Shown here: in pieces, positions 980 through 60,499 of the stretch | How the letters are laid out: each line of letters starts with the position of its first letter | Position numbering within the stretch: position 1 is the first letter of the stretch | Source of the DNA: a virus | Virus record (IMG/VR): IMGVR_UViG_3300021963_000113 | Span: 3,835 to 67,834 of that record | DNA: 64,000 nt | Strand: one strand, 5' to 3' | Notes under the pieces: model-generated | Seen by the model: the letters and a program-made list of their open reading frames with translations, nothing else | What the model was told of the DNA's origin: nothing | The model's database searches: none | Translations under genes and position numbers: made by a program

Positions 980-3900
980 TTAAATCTCCATCAAGAACCA
1001 ACCCTGCTGCTCTCCAGCGATACTATTTCCTGCTGCATCTGTTTCCCCGACATAGATAAGACCAAAAGCAGCATTTGGAGTGTTAACAACCAATTCACCA
1101 CCTCCATAATTAGATGCCCCACCCAAACTACTACCAGTTGGACTTCCTTGTAGAGATGTGCCAAGAGGTGCTCTAATAACTAGATTGACACTAAAGTTTA
1201 GAGCTCCACCAACATCAACAACTCTAATTGTATCTCCAGTAAGAGCGTCCTGAGGAAGTAATAAAACTAAAGTAGATGAAGGTCTAATCAAGTATTGAAT
1301 ATTTGGTCTCAATTGATATTGAGTATCAGATTGGGCAGATGCTTGATTGTTTCCTTGAGCACTAATAAAGACTGTTTTTCTGCCACCATTAGCATTATAG
1401 AAGTTTTCGTGTCCGAAAGCTTGTATAGAAGCATCCTGTCTAATTCTAAATGGTTTTGAATTATTATTACCTAAATTATTAATACTTAAGTAATTAACAG
1501 CAGCAGTAGGAGTACTAGTATAAGAGCCATGTAATGTAAGTGTTGCACCAGTGGCAGCAGAAGTTAATTCTCGTCCAATTACTGTACTACCTAATTGAGC
1601 GTCAACAGAGAATCTAGTAGTAAATGGATTTTGTCCAGTTTCCGTTGATGCGGGAGTAGTTAAAGTACCAACTGTCAAGTCATCGCCAACACGTAAAGTG
1701 CCTGCAATTTTAGTATTGCCAGTAGCACCCAATACTTCAAGTGCAATATTTTGTGCTACATCTTCTCTTCCTTTATCGAAATTACCAGAAGCAAAGAAGG
1801 AATCTTTAAAGATTTTGAGATTACCACCATTATAGATGCTTGTATTTCCAGATGCGGATTCGACATAGAATTTTGGAAGAGATCCATTAGTAATTACGAA
1901 ATACTGTTTTGCTGGTGTAGAAGTAGAAGTATTACCACTCAACTCAATTGAATTATGTACAATTAAGTTTCCGCCACCAGTTGCAATAATTGGATTTCCG
2001 TCCTTATCAACATCTGGTTTAGAAGTGCTAGATGGGAATCCATAAGAATCTGCTAGATTCTGGTCATTATCAGCATCATTAAATGGTTTAGTTGTATCAT
2101 AACCAATTACAACGTCACCAGAAATTTGTGTGTTACCTGTAGTTGATATTGTTTCAAATACTTTTAATGCATCTTTTTCAAATGATTCATTACCAAAATC
2201 TCCATTATTAATGACAAACTTCTGAGCATCTGCAGGATTTACCTGTGTAATTCTCACATATTCGCCACCTTCATTCAAACTTACCTTATTAAGTCTAAAC
2301 AAATCATTAATTTTGATATTTGCAGAGAATTCAGCAACATTAATAGCATTGCTAACGGCCGTTATTGGATTTGGATCTATATACGATGCATTTTGTTGCT
2401 CAACTAATCTGTAAATTCTCTGTCCATCTGGGTGAGATGATGCAGCTGTTCCTCTTTGTGCTCTTATAACTTCAACGTAGAATGGTTGTGGGCTATTAGG
2501 CACAAATGTGGATGGGAAATTAACTGTCTGAATAATTTCTTCACCAATTAAATACAATTGATTAATACCAATACCCGTTGGATTACTAATAGGAAGATTC
2601 CATGTTTGAATTCCATTAAAAATTCTATTCTTGAAAGAATCGTTGCCCCAGGGAACATCACCAGTTGTATCAATCACAGTGGAGAATAATCTCATTCTAG
2701 CATTACCTGCATCAGTAGTGCCAGATCTAAGTGCAATAGTGATATTATTATCAGAACTATTTTTTAATGTAAATCCTGTGGAATCTCTACTTGCAACATA
2801 ATAAGTTACATTAGTAGAAACGCCAGTTAGATTACCAACATCAAAAAATACTACCGCATCGTTTTGACTAAACCAATAATTATCAGAAAGTAATTTATTA
2901 TTTACTACTGTATTGATTCTAACAGTGCCATCAAAATTAGGAACAACAGAGAAATAATCGATATTCAAATTATCAAGACTACCAACCGACTGAGTAAGTC
3001 CTATATTTGTAATTACAGTACCAGTTGCTGCAGCCTGTGGATAATTAATACCAGGATTAGTATAAGTAAATGAATTTGGTCCAGTTACAGTAATTGCTAC
3101 TTGTCCGACCGTATTAAATGAATCGACACTACTTACAATTTGAGCAGTAGAAGAAATATTATGTGGGGAAACAGTGGTTACAGTCGCAACGCCATTAGAT
3201 CTTGTAAGAGTTGCAATTCTAATAGTGCCAAAGATATTTCTATTAATACCAAGATTGGTGTTTTTCAATCCACCATTTTGAGTAACATCAGATTCAAAGA
3301 ATGAAGAACCTAATACTTTCAATCCATTTCTGATTGTAGTTGTGCCAGCAACACCACCAAGAGTTAATGTACCAACACTTAAACCAATATTAAGTTTAGT
3401 AATTCCAGATGGGAATAGAGTGAATTCATCATTCAATGAAGTGGTATTAATTTCACCACCATTAATAGTTAATACACCATCAACTATAGTCTGATAATTT
3501 TTAATGTTGAAGAAACTGGACTGTCTGTTTAAGAATGCTCCACCAAAAGTAATATTTGATGAATATGCAGTATCATTATTTTCAACCGTGCCAATATCAA
3601 TTATAGAATTAGTAGCATTAGTATGAATATTGAGAGTTGATGCACCAGTTACCGCAGTGCCAATATTTACAGTTTGCTGGGTTGTTGCGAGATTTCCAAC
3701 ATTAACTGTTGTTGCATATCCAGCAAGAGTAAGATTAGTAGTGCTAGTCTGATTGGCAATTGTAAAGACACCCGAAGTAGTGCGAATATCTCCACCATTT
3801 ACATCAATATCAGATTCAAATCTGAAATCACCAGTGATTCTACCAGTGCCAGCAACCACAAGTGCTCTATCCAATGCACCATCAGCAATATTAATACCAA

Positions 3901-41969: not shown

Positions 41970-42075
41970 AGTAGGACCATCAGGGAAATGGTGGTGATAC
42001 TATGCTCCCCGCACCCTAAGCGGGGATATGAGAGACGTAATTTATACACCCATAGGTCTCGGTTAACGGGTGTTA
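41970..42075 (-). ncRNA. PhotoRC-II-like RNA motif in the psbA leader
   Basis: GAGAC..GTCTC, CCCCGC-TTAGGGT-GCGGGG and ACCAT..ATGGT stems directly upstream of psbA. Family assigned from recall. Confidence 0.7.
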
Positions 42076-42115
42076 CAAAAGATTAGAAATGTTTACATTT
42101 CTTAACCAGTTGACT

Positions 42116-54565: not shown

Positions 54566-54588
54566 AAAAGGGGGCAATTGCCCCCTTT
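54564..54588. terminator. Terminator between convergent transcription units
   Basis: AAAAAAGGGGGC-AATT-GCCCCCTTT. Confidence 0.85.
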
Positions 54589-54592
54589 CATT

Positions 54593-54679
54593 TTATCCAA
54601 GAGTCGCCATATGATATTGCGCTTCCTGTAGTTTCTTTTGTTTTTGAATTTGTTTACGGATAACATTCAACCAATTCAT
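54593..54679 (-). CDS. 28-aa basic peptide coupled to the DUF4278-like gene
   Basis: MNWLNVIRKQIQKQKKLQEAQYHMATLG; ATGA overlap. Confidence 0.6.
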   Translation of the reverse strand: MNWLNVIRKQIQKQKKLQEAQYHMATLG

Positions 54680-54840
54680 TTTGCTTCCTCCCAATTCCAG
54701 TTATTACATGGACGGTAGGCAACACCACGATACTTATTTTGTGGATGTGCTGGTGCATGAGTTTCTGAATACCAGTGCTGATATTCTTGCTTAGGGGTGT
54801 CAGTATTATACTTGCACCCACGATAGGTTGCTTGTGACAT
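54676..54840 (-). CDS. DUF4278-like protein (54 aa)
   Basis: Two YRG motifs (TYRGCKY, KYRGVAY), an AAGGAG RBS, and position downstream of glutamine aptamers. Confidence 0.8.
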   Translation of the reverse strand: MSQATYRGCKYNTDTPKQEYQHWYSETHAPAHPQNKYRGVAYRPCNNWNWEEAK

Positions 54841-54871
54841 TAGGTGTCTCCTTAAGTGTTAGTTTAAAGAG

Positions 54872-55043
54872 CGTTCCTTCAGTCGGCTTTTGCGTCTATG
54901 TTACACTTCTTTGGCGTTACAATTTTTAATTCATAAAGCAAATCATTTTTTAACTGAGGCGTCATTTGAGGATGAGAAGAAACTCTTCCCCAAATTAATT
55001 GTGCCTGTAAACAAGTTAAAACGAGTGCTTCCATAGATGAACG
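54872..55043 (-). ncRNA. Glutamine riboswitch-like (glnA-motif-like) aptamer 2 with a 131-nt P2 loop
   Basis: CGTTCA-TCTATG[131 nt]CATAGA-CGCAAAAGCCGACTGAAGGAACG. Confidence 0.65.
54879..55034 (-). CDS. 51-aa ORF nested inside aptamer 2
   Basis: MEALVLTCLQAQLIWGRVSSHPQMTPQLKNDLLYELKIVTPKKCNIDAKAD. Confidence 0.6.
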   Translation of the reverse strand: MEALVLTCLQAQLIWGRVSSHPQMTPQLKNDLLYELKIVTPKKCNIDAKAD

Positions 55044-55046
55044 TCC

Positions 55047-55088
55047 CGTTCCGAGTCGGCTTACTTCCGTCGCATATAGCGATGAACG
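55047..55088 (-). ncRNA. Glutamine riboswitch-like (glnA-motif-like) aptamer 1
   Basis: CGTTCA-TCGC-TATAT-GCGA-CGGAAGTAAGCCGACTCGGAACG. Confidence 0.75.
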
Positions 55089-55097
55089 TATTGTATA

Positions 55098-55126
55098 TAT
55101 TTATTTGATTTGGTAACATTTAATAC
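55098..55126 (-). promoter_or_regulatory. NtcA-box-like site plus late-type promoter upstream of the aptamers
   Basis: GTA-N8-TAC at 55113-55126; AATAAATA at 55098-55105. Confidence 0.55.
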
Positions 55127-55129
55127 CAA

Positions 55130-55201
55130 TGGGAACAGATAGATTTGAACTATCGACCTCCGCGTTATCAGCACGTTGCTCTACCACTGAGCTATGCTCC
55201 C
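55130..55201 (-). tRNA. tRNA-Ile(GAU)
   Basis: Cloverleaf; anticodon loop CTGATAA. Confidence 0.93.
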
Positions 55202-55204
55202 ATA

Positions 55205-55276
55205 TGGGTCTGGTGGGATTTGAACCCACAACTTCCAGGTTAAAAGCCCGTTACTCTACCATTGAGTTACAGACCC
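55205..55276 (-). tRNA. tRNA-Lys(UUU)
   Basis: Cloverleaf; anticodon loop CTTTTAA. Confidence 0.95.
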
Positions 55277-55280
55277 TCAA

Positions 55281-55362
55281 TGGGCAGGGAGGGATTTGAA
55301 CCCCCGTAGGCAGAGCCAGCGGATTTACAGTCCGCCTCCATTAACCACTCGGACACCTACCC
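55281..55362 (-). tRNA. tRNA-Tyr(GUA)
   Basis: Cloverleaf with variable arm; anticodon loop CTGTAAA. Confidence 0.95.
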
Positions 55363-55458
55363 AGATGGAGCAAGTGTGATACACCTCAAGGATGTAACAG
55401 TGACTTGCCCTCTATCTCACCACGGCATTCTGGTTTATCTTTCCAGCGCAAGTGGTAA

Positions 55459-55530
55459 CTGGAGTGGTGGGATTCGAACCTACGACCAATCGGTTAACAG
55501 CCGACCGCTCTACCACTGAGCTACACTCCA
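55459..55530 (-). tRNA. tRNA-Asn(GUU)
   Basis: Cloverleaf; anticodon loop CTGTTAA. Confidence 0.95.
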
Positions 55531-55536
55531 ATGAAA

Positions 55537-55707
55537 TCAGGACTGTTTAGTGTCCATCATGTATTCTACTGTGTTTGCAATATCATTCATTGCATCACGT
55601 AGAAAAGGTCGTTGACCAGATTCCTGGCGAACTATTGGGCGATGATCATCAGTGAGCGACCATCGCCATTGCTTCAACATTTCACAATACCATAGATTAA
55701 TCTTCAT
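55537..55707 (-). CDS. Hypothetical protein
   Basis: Start trimmed to MKINLWYC..QWRW.L..ESGQ. Confidence 0.65.
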   Translation of the reverse strand: MKINLWYCEMLKQWRWSLTDDHRPIVRQESGQRPFLRDAMNDIANTVEYMMDTKQS

Positions 55708-55900
55708 GTTTGCTATACTCCAATCGTATCCAGTTGAGAAGTGCGTAGACTTCTGACAATTCTGATTTGTATTCGGTATAGTCTGTGTCATCAAAAAGTT
55801 TTTCTTTTTCAAAAAATTCAATTTCACTGGTCAAAAAATCCACATAATGATTGAATACATTGATTGCAAGTTGTCTGTCTCTCTGTGAAATAAGTGACAT
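55697..55900 (-). CDS. Hypothetical protein
   Basis: GAGG RBS; begins MSLISQRDR. Confidence 0.65.
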   Translation of the reverse strand: MSLISQRDRQLAINVFNHYVDFLTSEIEFFEKEKLFDDTDYTEYKSELSEVYALLNWIRLEYSKHED

Positions 55901-55922
55901 GTTATTTATCCTCAGGGATAAG

Positions 55923-55994
55923 AGCGGAGTATCGGAATCGAACCGACGACATCTAACTTGGAAGGATAGCGTTCTACCGCTGAACTAACTCCGC
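55923..55994 (-). tRNA. tRNA-Gly(UCC)
   Basis: Cloverleaf; anticodon loop CTTCCAA. Confidence 0.93.
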
Positions 55995-56080
55995 ATGGCA
56001 GGAAGGAGAGCTCTTGATGCAATCGCAGGATCACTTCCCCCTTGGCCTCCTTCTAGGCTGTCTGCCTAACGAGTAACCAA

Positions 56081-56162
56081 TGTCGATGAGAGGACTTGAA
56101 CCTCCACGAATAAATTCACTGGAACCTAAACCCAGCGCGTCTACCAATTCCGCCACATCGAC
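56081..56162 (-). tRNA. tRNA-Leu(UAG)
   Basis: Cloverleaf with variable arm; anticodon loop TTTAGGT. Confidence 0.95.
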
Positions 56163-56199: not shown

Positions 56200-56335
56200 C
56201 CCCCCGTTGCTCGGCTCGCCACTTGCCCTTTGACCAGAGGCAAGAAACTGGGCGGGAGTTATCCCCATCCGCACCACCAGTTTTTGAGAGAAACTGGAAA
56301 CTCATCGAGGGGGTTTCCCGACCAGGGCACTTTTA
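56198..56335 (-). ncRNA. manA-like structured RNA
   Basis: GAGTTTCCAGTTTCTC..AAACTGGTGG and GTTTCTTGCC..GGCAAGTGGCGAGCC modules, closed by AACCCCC/GGGGGGTT, next to tRNAs. Family assigned from recall. Confidence 0.65.
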
Positions 56336-58411: not shown

Positions 58412-58504
58412 TAGGAGTGGAGGGACTCGAACCCCCAACCGCGCACTAATCTGGTGCATACAGAAGGTATAAGCTTCTCGCTCTGCCAATTGAGCTACAC
58501 TCCC
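58412..58504 (-). tRNA. tRNA with UAU anticodon (Ile?) and a long variable arm
   Basis: 7-bp acceptor stem; AGAAG-CTTATAC-CTTCT; extra arm TGCAC-CAGATTA-GTGCG. Confidence 0.8.
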
Positions 58505-58509
58505 ATAGG

Positions 58510-58582
58510 TGCTCCTTGCGTGGATCGAACACGCCTCAGGCGAATTATGAGTTCGCTGCATTCACCAGATTGCTAAAGGAGC
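58510..58582 (-). tRNA. tRNA-Met/Ile2(CAU)
   Basis: Cloverleaf; anticodon loop CTCATAA. Confidence 0.9.
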
Positions 58583-58589
58583 TAATGAA

Positions 58590-58662
58590 TGGAGAATAGG
58601 GGACTCGAACCCCTGACTTACAGCTTGCAAAGCTGTCACTCTACCAACTGAGTTAATTCCCC
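58590..58662 (-). tRNA. tRNA-Ala(UGC)
   Basis: Cloverleaf with G3:U70; anticodon loop TTTGCAA. Confidence 0.95.
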
Positions 58663-58809
58663 TTGTATTCGCTCATAATTTTGATATGGCGTCAGAAGAA
58701 CATCACTGCCATCACTGGTAGTAATAATAAAACTTTCTTTATTGAGCATCACTTCGTCCATGATTGCATCAAAGTCGTGGCAAAAAGTTTCTTCTGAAAT
58801 AGTTTTCAT
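58636..58809 (-). CDS. Phd/YefM antitoxin-fold-like small protein
   Basis: MKTIS..F..DF..IMDEV....E.FIIT...G.DVLL.P...YE pattern. Confidence 0.6.
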   Translation of the reverse strand: MKTISEETFCHDFDAIMDEVMLNKESFIITTSDGSDVLLTPYQNYERIQGELTQLVE

Positions 58810-59069
58810 ACCATACACTCCATGTCTTTTTCTTCTTGTAGGCAACCAATACTGGTTAGATATTCAATAGTGTCGGTGCATCCACCCATAATCATACCAT
58901 CAAGAGTTACCTGTGGAAAGGTAGCACCTTGACCAAACTCAGTATAAAATCCTTCACGAGTAAAGTCATCGTCAAGTTTGTATTGTGTGTATTTCACATC
59001 AAAACTATCAAGAATCATCTTGAGTTTGCTGCAATACTGACAATTTTCACGAGTGTAAATAACTAACAT
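58806..59069 (-). CDS. nrdC: Glutaredoxin (second copy)
   Basis: CQYC, FG.GATFPQV and GGC.D motifs. Start trimmed because the longer ORF overlaps tRNA-Pro. Confidence 0.88.
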   Translation of the reverse strand: MLVIYTRENCQYCSKLKMILDSFDVKYTQYKLDDDFTREGFYTEFGQGATFPQVTLDGMIMGGCTDTIEYLTSIGCLQEEKDMECMV

Positions 59070-59089
59070 TAAATCTCCTATAAGAAGAA

Positions 59090-59163
59090 TCGGGATGACA
59101 GGATTCGAACCTGCGACATCTCGCTCCCAAAGCGAGTGCTCTACCAAACTGAGCTACATCCCG
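59090..59163 (-). tRNA. tRNA-Pro(UGG)
   Basis: Cloverleaf; anticodon loop TTTGGGA. Confidence 0.95.
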
Positions 59164-59239
59164 TGGTGAGTCGGATATGATGGTCCCGACTCGTTATGAA
59201 AACCTCTTTTTAGGCTATCTGCCTAACGAGTGCCTTCAA

Positions 59240-59324
59240 CGGAAAGGGTGGGATTCGAACCCACGGAAGCTTTCACTTCGCTGGTTTTCAAGACCAGAGC
59301 CTTCAACCACTCGACCACCTTTCC
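59240..59324 (-). tRNA. tRNA-Ser(UGA)
   Basis: Cloverleaf with variable arm; anticodon loop CTTGAAA. Confidence 0.95.
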
Positions 59325-59337
59325 AAGTGACCTCCTA

Positions 59338-59366
59338 ATTATATAGGAGGTTGGGGGTTGTGTCAA
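59338..59366 (-). promoter_or_regulatory. Early promoter for tRNA-Ser
   Basis: TTGACA-N17-TATAAT. Confidence 0.85.
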
Positions 59367-59378
59367 CCCCCCTGGTTA

Positions 59379-59744
59379 TCAAAAGGTATAACGAACTTTC
59401 AGTTCACCACCAAGAGCGAAGATTTCGGAATCGAAACCATGCTCACCAGCAACCTTGGCTTTAATAGAAACGCTTTCGCCCACGGGGAAAGTAGCACCAA
59501 GTTCACCAACAGCAACTGCTTCGTTGCCAAGACCAGCATTATTCCACTCATAACCAGGACCAATCTCAGCAAAGAGAGTGATACCATTTTCCAGTTTCTG
59601 CTCATAACCAACACGAAGTTCGGTTTGAGCACCAGTGTAATCACCATCCACCATAGCGCCAGTGGTTTTAGATTCCACATAAGGAGCTGCCATAGCAGGT
59701 GCTGCAATCATGGGGAGAGCAGCAAGAGAAATCAGTTGTTTCAT
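59379..59744 (-). CDS. Small outer-membrane beta-barrel-like protein
   Basis: Signal peptide ending in AMA, alternating beta-strand pattern, and C-terminal VRYTF. Confidence 0.75.
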   Translation of the reverse strand: MKQLISLAALPMIAAPAMAAPYVESKTTGAMVDGDYTGAQTELRVGYEQKLENGITLFAEIGPGYEWNNAGLGNEAVAVGELGATFPVGESVSIKAKVAGEHGFDSEIFALGGELKVRYTF

Positions 59745-59786
59745 ACTTTTTTAATGTATCAGTTTACAAAATGCCCATAAGGGCAA

Positions 59787-59877
59787 CGGAAGTGGTTGGA
59801 TTTGAACCAACGGATGCCCACAAAAAGACATCGGGGGATTAGCAATCCCCTGCATTAAACCGCTCTGCCACACTTCC
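59787..59877 (-). tRNA. tRNA-Ser(GCU)
   Basis: Cloverleaf with long variable arm; anticodon loop TTGCTAA. Confidence 0.93.
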
Positions 59878-60134
59878 TAACGGATTTCAAACTCCATTTT
59901 TCTGGGTATTCTCTTAGTATAACCTGATACTGGTTGTGTGTCAAGCTTTTTTTCTTTCGGTTTTCCGACTCCATCAATACCCGTAATAACAGACAAATCA
60001 TTACCTGAGATGATAGGCATACCACTTCTATCCAATCTCAATAGAGTATGATTATCACACCCACATGCTTTGCTTTTGTTTGCTTGTGTTACTTCTAATT
60101 CTACACCACATGCGTTACATCTGATCCTTGCCAT
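59877..60134 (-). CDS. Small putative zinc-binding protein
   Basis: CNAC..CGC.N pattern. Confidence 0.7.
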   Translation of the reverse strand: MARIRCNACGVELEVTQANKSKACGCDNHTLLRLDRSGMPIISGNDLSVITGIDGVGKPKEKKLDTQPVSGYTKRIPRKMEFEIR

Positions 60135-60342
60135 TTTCTTTCATCCATTCTTTCATTGCTTTTTGCATATCATTATAATCTTTATCAAGCTGTCGCTTCA
60201 TTTTAATCTTCATAAAAAATGTGATGACTTTAATTCGTGCTAGTTGAGTCATCAAATTAATAAACTTCGGCACATTCGGGTCTTGCCAAAGAATGTATAC
60301 GATAGCAGCGATTGCTGCCATTGAAATGTAATATGTATTCAT
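60115..60342 (-). CDS. Hypothetical membrane protein
   Basis: N-terminal TM segment. Confidence 0.65.
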   Translation of the reverse strand: MNTYYISMAAIAAIVYILWQDPNVPKFINLMTQLARIKVITFFMKIKMKRQLDKDYNDMQKAMKEWMKENGKDQM

Positions 60343-60351
60343 AGTTTAATA

Positions 60352-60423
60352 TGGGCGATACTGGAATCGAACCAGTGACTTACCACTTGTAAGGAGGCCA
60401 CTCTACCGCTGAGTTAATCGCCC
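60352..60423 (-). tRNA. tRNA-Val(UAC)
   Basis: Cloverleaf; anticodon loop CTTACAA. Confidence 0.92.
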
Positions 60424-60499
60424 TGGCGTCTCGGGCTGGGATCGAACCAGCGACCAACTGCTTAGAAGGCAGATGCTCTATCCGCTGAGCTACCGAGAC
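60424..60499 (-). tRNA. tRNA-Arg(UCU), CCA encoded
   Basis: Cloverleaf; anticodon loop CTTCTAA. Confidence 0.95.

Follow-up and report, generated by a model that had tools for sequence, protein, structure and literature searches.

The DNA analysed here is a 64,000-nucleotide (nt) stretch (the window; positions 3,835 to 67,834 of IMG/VR virus record IMGVR_UViG_3300021963_000113), which makes up most of a 67.8-kb virus record whose completeness is rated at 35%. It bears cyanomyovirus hallmarks in the form of a wcaG RNA, a PhotoRC-II RNA and tRNA arrays (Rfam, whole window). We describe a leader on its minus strand, read from 55088 to 54872, in which two cores of the glutamine-I (glnA) riboswitch type lie upstream of a DUF4278 gene, and in which a hairpin of the second core encloses a 51-codon open reading frame (ORF), called here the nested gene. 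P1, P2 and P3 denote the helices of the aptamer, and its features are as follows.

55083..55088, minus: 5' strand of outer-core P1, CGUUC followed by A (CGUUCA); matches P1 of Rfam model RF01739 and is invariant in 41 of 41 aligned relatives
55070..55082, minus: outer-core hairpin P2a, UCGC-UAUAU-GCGA, short in the window (from the RF01739 alignment)
55062..55069, minus: outer junction J2/3, CGGAAGUA, which contributes AGUA to loop E; the RF01739 consensus aligned with it is also CGGAAGUA
55054..55061, minus: first P3 strand (u1), AGCCGACU; partner at 54888-54881, from covariation between the units
55053-55047, 55046-55044 and 55043-55038, minus: inner-core P1 as a hairpin, made of CGGAACG, the loop GGA and CGUUCA
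55032..55037, minus: 5' strand of P2b, UCUAUG, which contains the nested start codon (55034-55032)
55031-54901, minus: loop of P2b, 131 nt
54879..55034, minus: nested gene, 51 codons plus TGA (54881-54879); a phrog_504 member, predicted as a small two-helix protein with two cysteines
54895..54900, minus: 3' strand of P2b, CAUAGA, paired with UCUAUG; codons for N-I-D
54889..54894, minus: inner junction J2/3, CGCAAA, without a loop-E half; lies within the codons for D-A-K
54881..54888, minus: second P3 strand (u2), AGCCGACU; its last U is the first base of the stop codon
54872..54880, minus: GAAGGAACG, the GAA half of loop E and the 3' strand of outer P1; its first GA completes the TGA
54848..54871, minus: putative expression platform, CUCUUUAA (54871-54864) paired with the Shine-Dalgarno (SD) sequence UUAAGGAG (54855-54848)
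54676..54840, minus: downstream gene for a 54-amino-acid DUF4278 (IF17-like) protein with two YRG motifs

The initial annotation of this locus had drawn a P2 stem (TCTATG/CATAGA) that closes a 131-nt loop, and a 51-codon ORF that starts with an ATG within the 5' side of this stem and ends with a TGA within the aptamer's 3' half; the coordinates of both hold. The conserved 3' core, which ends in AGCCGACUGAAGGAACG at 54872, contains the nested TGA. Both strands of inner P1 are invariant (41 of 41 relatives), and its hairpin is present in the free minimum free energy (MFE) fold and occurs as a single copy in the 67.8-kb virus record.

Relatives were collected by blastn with the region as query, which matched 22 of 50,697 phage records, and by two pattern scans of IMG/VR, which gave at least loci L010-L217; all leader counts below are among the matches listed. 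The 184 leaders parsed comprise 120 with a long loop in the second hairpin and 64 with a short one. Synechococcus phages DSL-LC03, DSL-LC02 and S-SRM01 share both units and have a homologue of the ORF in the second one, and P-SSM7 has a more distant ORF at that place. ORFs lie in both hairpins of P-SSM3, P-SSM4 and one single-cell virus contig, while S-PM2 and S-CREM1 possess both units with short, ORF-less hairpins. When the 181 unique leaders are sorted by loop length, 82 combine a short P2a with a long P2b, 43 are short in both, 24 long in both, 16 long in P2a and short in P2b, and 16 fall in no clear class.

The nested gene and the stem around it

From the ATG in P2b to the aptamer core, the ORF is kept in 116 of the 120 long-loop leaders, and in 114 the stop falls at exactly the position seen in the window. 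If the position of the stop is relaxed, the ORF is found in 119 of the 120: in three of the remaining four the frame ends five bases ahead of the junction, and the fourth leader is ORF-less. The ATG lies 3-5 nt after CGUUCA in 114 of 116 relatives, and the stop codon is TGA in 86 of the 116, TAA in 30 and TAG in none. The other two frames contain 520 and 644 stops across 117 unique ORF sequences.

The first four and last eight codons were omitted from the codon analysis because they overlap the aptamer. Among the 34 sequences of the window's clade (at least 50% identical), the central codons differ by 0.35, 0.18 and 0.50 at the first, second and third position, and the ratio of nonsynonymous to synonymous substitution rates (dN/dS) is 0.19, compared with 0.36 over all 117 sequences. 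Cys8, Cys44 and Ala48 are invariant in 107 unique nested proteins. The surrounding 6 kb hold 79 ORFs of at least 30 amino acids, and a 51-codon frame would by itself be unremarkable; it is the conservation in relatives that places this ORF beyond chance. Judged by these patterns of substitution and conservation, the ORF is a real gene under purifying selection.

A profile search with the nested protein recovered 901 clusters at an expectation value (E) of at most 0.001, none with a Pfam domain. Every one of the 120 listed among these 901 clusters closes with DAKAD, and in 119 of them the number of cysteines is exactly two. This ending is the translation of the aptamer core (GAC-GCA-AAA-GCC-GAC). 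A free-standing copy of the family is thus not seen among the listed homologues, all of which end in the aptamer-encoded DAKAD, an ending that the profile itself favours. The window's protein matches phrog_504 (E 2.3e-5), as do 90 of the 107 nested proteins (best E 9.2e-31). AlphaFold2 predicts a confident two-helix hairpin (predicted local distance difference test score 86), and a Foldseek search of the PDB with this model yielded no usable neighbour (best E 2.6). The sole Pfam match, to MinE at E 0.2, was dismissed. A modelled complex between the nested protein and the DUF4278 protein scored 0.00, which weighs neither for nor against binding.

Two observations concern the ends of the ORF. 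In S-SRM01 (L003 1569-1736), a compensatory change to C-G at the end of P3 deletes the U of the stop codon, so that the ORF is five codons longer and runs through outer P1 into the anti-SD sequence; the RNA pairing is kept and the stop position is lost. Some database gene calls (proteins P0013, P0026, P0041 and others) extend the protein upstream (..TEVSRLGTDRSS-M..); these starts are probably artefacts, because the frame happens to be open through the 3' half of unit 1. At the 5' end, 30 of 118 ORF-bearing leaders and 0 of 60 ORF-less ones have an inner P1 loop that forms GGAG (the linker starts with GAG), placed about 10 nt ahead of the nested ATG. The hairpin may present a ribosome site in its loop, or this loop sequence may simply mark a single clade.

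The stem around the gene was compared across 118 unique ORF-bearing leaders, in which the five junction-proximal pairs of P2b are formed in 99.3% of cases. With shuffled partners the mean is 75.7% and the maximum 81.2% (1000 shuffles), and with the 3' partner slid by 1-3 nt pairing falls to 34-54%. Pairs 3 to 5 covary: pair 3 is CG in 70 leaders, UA in 39 and UG in 9, and pair 4 is CG in 49, AU in 38, UA in 16 and UG in 15. Since the first 3-5 nt of the 5' strand precede the ATG and are non-coding, this covariation points to selection at the RNA level; their 3' partner is the codon before Asp, which may specify W, I, E, K, R or V. Changes on both sides are also seen in the ORF-less leaders, at all four P2a pairs and at four of five P2b pairs (alignment A1, 41 leaders). 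We conclude from pairing and covariation that the stem closing around the gene is an RNA helix. Conservation of the ORF and of its stem in relatives, which the initial annotation had named as a check on its claims, is therefore found for both.

Identity and arrangement of the cores

Unit 1 (CGUUCA...GGAACG, 55088-55047) scores 31.0 bits against the glutamine-I model RF01739 (E 9.3e-5; gathering score 35), and its gapped pattern matches once in the window, with 0 matches expected from 100 shuffles. Unit 2, whose first element is the CGUUCA at 55043-55038, has no Rfam match, either at gathering thresholds in the whole window or at E of at most 10 in 54600-55200. The initial annotation had foreseen that covariance models would miss the split aptamer, and had suggested a search with the loop deleted; nature provides the latter in the form of ORF-less relatives, which score 38.1 (L010), 37.2 (L013), 33.5 and 33.3 bits against the same model. 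The 3' core and tail of the 37.2-bit relative are the same as those of the window. The hallmarks of the class, P1 (CGUUC/GAACG) with an adjacent P2 hairpin, are present, P2 with support from covariation, as is the position upstream of a DUF4278/IF17-like gene. Both halves of loop E (CGGAAGUA and GAAGG) are present, one in each unit, and they make one aptamer only if the first 5' half is joined to the last 3' half. The local P3 hairpin typical of the class is absent at this locus, where P3 forms between the units. The non-local P3 and the 131-nt insert explain why the RNA fails the RF01739 model or passes it only narrowly. The earlier assignment of both units to the glnA motif is thus supported by sequence comparison, and glutamine binding is predicted. 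Glutamine-II (RF01704) was considered and rejected, as it scores 15.8 bits on unit 1 only (E 0.23; gathering score 33).

How the two units fit together is indicated by the helix between them. The two AGCCGACU segments (55061-55054 with 54888-54881) can form 8 base pairs with two A.C mismatches. Across relatives the two strands covary, with AGCCGACG opposite CGCCGACU, AGCCGACA opposite UGCCGACU and CGCCGACU opposite AGCCGACG; further variants are AGCCAACU with AGCUGACU or AGUUGACU, a 5-bp AGUCG/CGACU and AGUCA/UGACU. In the ORF-less alignment A1, both partners vary at four of the eight P3 pairs, and the pair 42-89 is UA in 15 leaders, GC in 12 and AU in 4, with 0 unpaired. Unit 1 lacks the GAAG of the consensus and unit 2 the GU of AAGUA, and the inner J2/3 shows a 2-nt deletion relative to the consensus CGGAAGUA in the alignment of ORF-less relatives. 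When the first 5' half and the last 3' half are combined, both halves of loop E are present.

Because the inter-unit helix covaries and loop E is split between the units, we read the layout as one core inside the other, with a shared P3. In what we consider a coherent model, the outer core would consist of the first CGUUC, P2a, CGGAAGUA, P3 and GAAGGAACG (with the last GAACG), and would hold both halves of loop E. The inner core would be a permuted copy at the other end of P3, made of the P1 hairpin CGGAACG-GGA-CGUUC, P2b with the gene, and CGCAAA. The initial annotation had described two tandem aptamer-like units: both units stand, but a tandem arrangement does not fit the inter-unit covariation of P3, the split loop E, or the intra-unit mini-hairpin that it needs, which is unpaired in 16 of 31 sequences. 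Nor do the units look like independent aptamers, each folding alone with its own platform, as P3 joins them and the 3 nt that separate them leave no room for a platform.

The gene downstream encodes a protein that scores 22.3 bits against DUF4278 (PF14105; cut-off 25.3) and matches phrog_5049 at E 2.6e-9; of 100 proteins sampled downstream of related leaders, 92 match DUF4278 at E of at most 0.01. DUF4278 marks IF17, a glutamine synthetase inactivating factor, and the gifB/IF17 leader of Synechocystis is an ON switch for glutamine that presumably makes the ribosome site accessible (Klahn 2018, PMC6212724). In the window, the hairpin of CUCUUUAA with UUAAGGAG has a free energy of -9.0 kcal/mol (z -2.79), and 3 of 200 shuffles fold as well. 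A platform of this type occurs in about 30 of 145 related platforms, and other clades differ.

Translation, folding and alternative readings

We propose, with a probability of roughly 0.6, that the locus is a double glutamine-I leader with a gene-enclosing hairpin, in which translation of the nested gene and folding of the sensor exclude each other and give reciprocal outputs. Exclusion of this kind had been suggested in the initial annotation, and the geometry agrees with it: the hairpin of inner P1 and the P2b 5' strand account for the ATG and about 20 nt upstream of it, and the last eight codons coincide with the P2b 3' strand, the junction and a strand of P3. To initiate at the nested ATG, a ribosome would need about 35 nt around the start to be single-stranded, a stretch made up of the hairpin of inner P1 and the P2b 5' strand; to elongate over the last eight codons, it would unwind the P2b 3' strand, the junction of the inner core and the P3 common to both cores. 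A folded sensor, stabilised by glutamine, would in turn bury the nested start codon. Because a ribosome must melt inner P1, P2b and P3, its presence on the nested gene and the folded sensor should be mutually exclusive.

By analogy with the gifB ON switch of Synechocystis, glutamine binding would free the ribosome site of the DUF4278 gene. At low glutamine the nested protein would be made and the sensor held open, and at high glutamine the sensor would fold, the nested gene would be off and the DUF4278 protein would be made. Transcription reaches the P2b 3' strand some 140 nt downstream of the ATG, which would leave a co-transcriptional interval with the nested start free. More tentatively, we speculate that the leader could serve as a toggle with two outputs on one mRNA, where the aptamer wraps a gene, the same nucleotides act as sensor and codons, and the phage reads host nitrogen to pick an effector; we would not wager on this fuller scheme.

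Several points weigh against the proposal. We infer ligand binding, translation of the ORF and regulation of the downstream gene from the layout and by analogy. In the window the nested ORF lacks a strong SD sequence, with just GGGA 9 nt upstream, and a 6-bp stem that closes a 131-nt loop would be weak alone. The nested topology rests on P3 and the split loop E, since all P1 strands are invariant and their 5' and 3' partners thus cannot be assigned by covariation. The commonest form of P3, that of the window included, has two A.C mismatches, and its excess of pairing is small in ORF-bearing leaders (80.7%; shuffled controls average 76.9% and reach at most 78.4%). Energies do not decide the topology: the constrained MFE is -52.7 kcal/mol for the nested and -55.8 kcal/mol for the tandem arrangement, with a free MFE of -59.8 kcal/mol, and the z of -1.47 for the whole-leader fold (MFE relative to shuffles) likewise leaves it undecided. 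Sequestration of the SD sequence is not general either, being complete in 33 of 145 platforms and in 558 of 2900 (19%) shuffled controls, and the logic of the platform may therefore differ between clades. Finally, a ribosome at the nested TGA would cover the start of the anti-SD sequence and could thereby activate the downstream gene.

This last point leads to a different reading, in which the two genes are coupled and the nested gene is an upstream ORF: a ribosome that terminates on it would occupy outer P1 and the first anti-SD bases, open the SD hairpin and turn DUF4278 on. Nested translation would thus circumvent or supplement the sensing of glutamine, which would make the leader an OR gate or a device for co-expression. 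The TGA (54881-54879) does lie 7 nt before the anti-SD sequence CUCUUUAA and 38 nt before the DUF4278 ATG, 114 of 116 relatives have their stop at that very place, the SD hairpin of the window's clade is genuine, and the ORF of S-SRM01 continues into the anti-SD region. RNA constraints alone would nevertheless explain the fixed stop, for its U closes P3 and the following GA or AA lies in loop E, in line with the absence of TAG from all 116. The SD hairpin is moreover absent from many relatives, and constitutive coupling would defeat the glutamine switch, and so we hold coupling to be rather unlikely. It is also conceivable that the gene is a passenger, one of the small genes that compact phage genomes have placed in P2 loops tolerant of them, and that it is co-transcribed with the sensor, which would work on untranslated copies without any evolved interplay. 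Peripheral loops of group I introns also house ORFs, either P2 loop of the present leaders may be short or long (181 unique leaders), and ORF-less leaders with the same cores exist. A true passenger, however, would be free to lie entirely within the loop and to carry a ribosome site of its own, whereas the nested gene invariably starts in the stem and stops in or at the core's 3' half. The DAKAD ending in 120 of 120 listed homologues, none of them free-standing (with the profile's bias noted above), also speaks against a passenger, which appears to us distinctly improbable.

The arrangement of the cores could alternatively be side by side, each aptamer with its own P1 and the AGCCGACU segments in tertiary kissing contact only. 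Rfam aligns each unit as a complete aptamer, the constrained MFE of this arrangement is slightly better, and 157 glutamine doublets are listed as tandem pseudo-cooperative riboswitches (Sherlock 2022, PMC9481103). Each unit alone, on the other hand, is without a piece of the consensus that the first 5' and last 3' halves together possess, and an 8-bp helix between the units would, on geometric grounds, put the 3' strand of each P1 at the end of P3 far from its own junction; we regard independent tandem aptamers as very doubtful. That the loop is a non-coding structured RNA, or the ORF a chance open frame, is scarcely credible. The number of other ORFs nearby and the modest whole-leader z would allow it, but the dN/dS of 0.19, the most variable third codon position, the two invariant cysteines and a frame kept in 116-119 of 120 leaders despite loop lengths of about 118-183 nt all argue against it. 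A leader peptide that senses Gln codons was rejected as well: the window's clade is rich in Gln, but by eye marine relatives have few, and the protein is under selection. On balance we favour the double core in which translation and folding exclude each other.

Known systems, relatives and surroundings

Group I introns of T4-type phages carry ORFs that are looped out of the core and encode mobile homing endonucleases with free-standing relatives. They resemble the present case in that a gene occupies a peripheral loop of a functional RNA and its translation into the core would conflict with folding. Their ORFs, however, are not known to share codons with the conserved core, whereas here the start and the last eight codons form part of the sensor, and the RNA is a putative ligand sensor and not a ribozyme. 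In leader-peptide attenuation, translation of a small ORF picks between RNA folds, and the peptides are poorly conserved, as it is the act of translation that matters. The nested ORF differs from leader peptides and dual-function RNAs in that it encodes a 51-amino-acid protein under purifying selection with invariant cysteines, and in that the competing fold is a metabolite aptamer.

The RNA is a derivative of the glutamine-I riboswitch (RF01739; Klahn 2018, PMC6212724), with which the leader shares P1 (CGUUC/GAACG), the P2 hairpin and the CGGAAGUA and GAAGG junctions. The gifB leader of Synechocystis likewise lies upstream of a DUF4278 gene and is likely an ON switch that acts on translation, with the ribosome site masked by its 3' tail. 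The window departs from this class in that its cores would share P3, one of them being circularly permuted, and in that a P2 hairpin encloses a gene whose codons also form part of the core; each unit scores at or below the gathering score, and the ORF-bearing one goes undetected. Glutamine aptamer pairs have been called tandem (Weinberg 2010, PMC2864571), and tandem pseudo-cooperative riboswitches similarly place two glutamine cores in one leader, which probably sharpens the response (Sherlock 2022, PMC9481103). Those are described as independent units in series, in contrast to the single nested fold with one platform proposed here; the available portion of that paper makes no mention of an ORF inside an aptamer and uses the word 'nested' 0 times. 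The S-CREM1 paper lists this locus in its Table 4 only as glnA, at 44 bits. The full-text literature within reach, which does not include Ames & Breaker 2011 and supplements, yielded no account of a glutamine aptamer with an ORF in it or of two nested cores, and the accessible parts of PMC2864571, PMC6212724, PMC9964418, PMC9004378, PMC12379486, PMC6698751 and PMC9481103 do not describe the same layout.

Riboswitch aptamers are regarded as non-coding and compact, with domains of 50-150 nt, and search models follow that view. Here the sensor would fold across 130-180 nt of translated sequence, its core doubling as the start and last codons of a conserved protein, and ribosome traffic would become a direct input to a metabolite sensor. 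Standard scans would undercount such switches, just as Rfam leaves the window's split core unreported. Cyanophages are major agents of nutrient turnover in the ocean, and they appear to wire the glutamine status of the host to a choice of small protein, one of which resembles the glutamine synthetase inactivating factor. If the fuller toggle scheme is true, this would be a natural riboswitch that physically wraps a protein gene, with two small effectors chosen by host nitrogen status. The proposed nested, circularly permuted double aptamer also offers RNA engineering an interesting design principle.

Near-identical sequence is present in RNA libraries. Metatranscriptome contigs from three of them (X17-X19), possibly from one campaign, cover 54859/54868-55092 with 6-7 differences, and another contig (X16) covers 54881-55038 with 0 differences; the contigs of higher depth there come from an ORF-less relative, with a joint that skips 151 nt. 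We take these contigs only as presence of such sequence, since transcription, ends and strand are beyond their reach. The full architecture was found in 0 of 120 genome-contig loci that match the 14-base inner-hairpin pattern, a scan swamped by chance matches and uninformative on cellular occurrence.

Genes also occupy the first hairpin in some relatives. The P2a loop is long in 40 of 181 leaders and contains a gene in 35 of these 40 (for example L006 400-600, L010, L018, L025 and L028). The ORFs span 60-73 amino acids and again have two conserved cysteines; that of P-SSM3 belongs to phrog_6471, and one subfamily starts with MTKALLLLAWVPLL..., which is signal-peptide-like. A near-identical 9-bp hairpin, UUCGCUAUU...AAUAGCGAA, forms P2a in the ORF-bearing leaders L001, L020 and L026 and P2b in the ORF-less leaders L005, L023 and L034, which suggests from sequence likeness that hairpins have been exchanged between the two cores.

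Two further features lie downstream of the DUF4278 gene.

54593..54679, minus: 28-codon ORF (MNWLNVIRKQ...), with an ATGA overlap with the DUF4278 stop
54567..54588, reported on the plus strand: palindromic G+C-rich hairpin GGGGGCAATTGCCCCC, with A/T runs on both sides; the stem is the palindrome

The 28-codon ORF is conserved in DSL-LC03 and DSL-LC02 (L001, L002), and its gene may be split or fused between phages, because the C-terminal part of the S-CREM1 DUF4278 protein is a similar stretch. The hairpin, between converging genes, is likely a bidirectional terminator that ends a small operon. Upstream, two tRNA arrays (55130-56162 and 58412-60499, minus strand) adjoin the riboswitch operon and account for 14 of the 16 tRNA hits in the window. 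The wcaG RNA (56208-56305, minus strand; 95 bits) lies between tRNAs, and the PhotoRC-II RNA (82.7 bits) is at 41992-42085 on the same strand.

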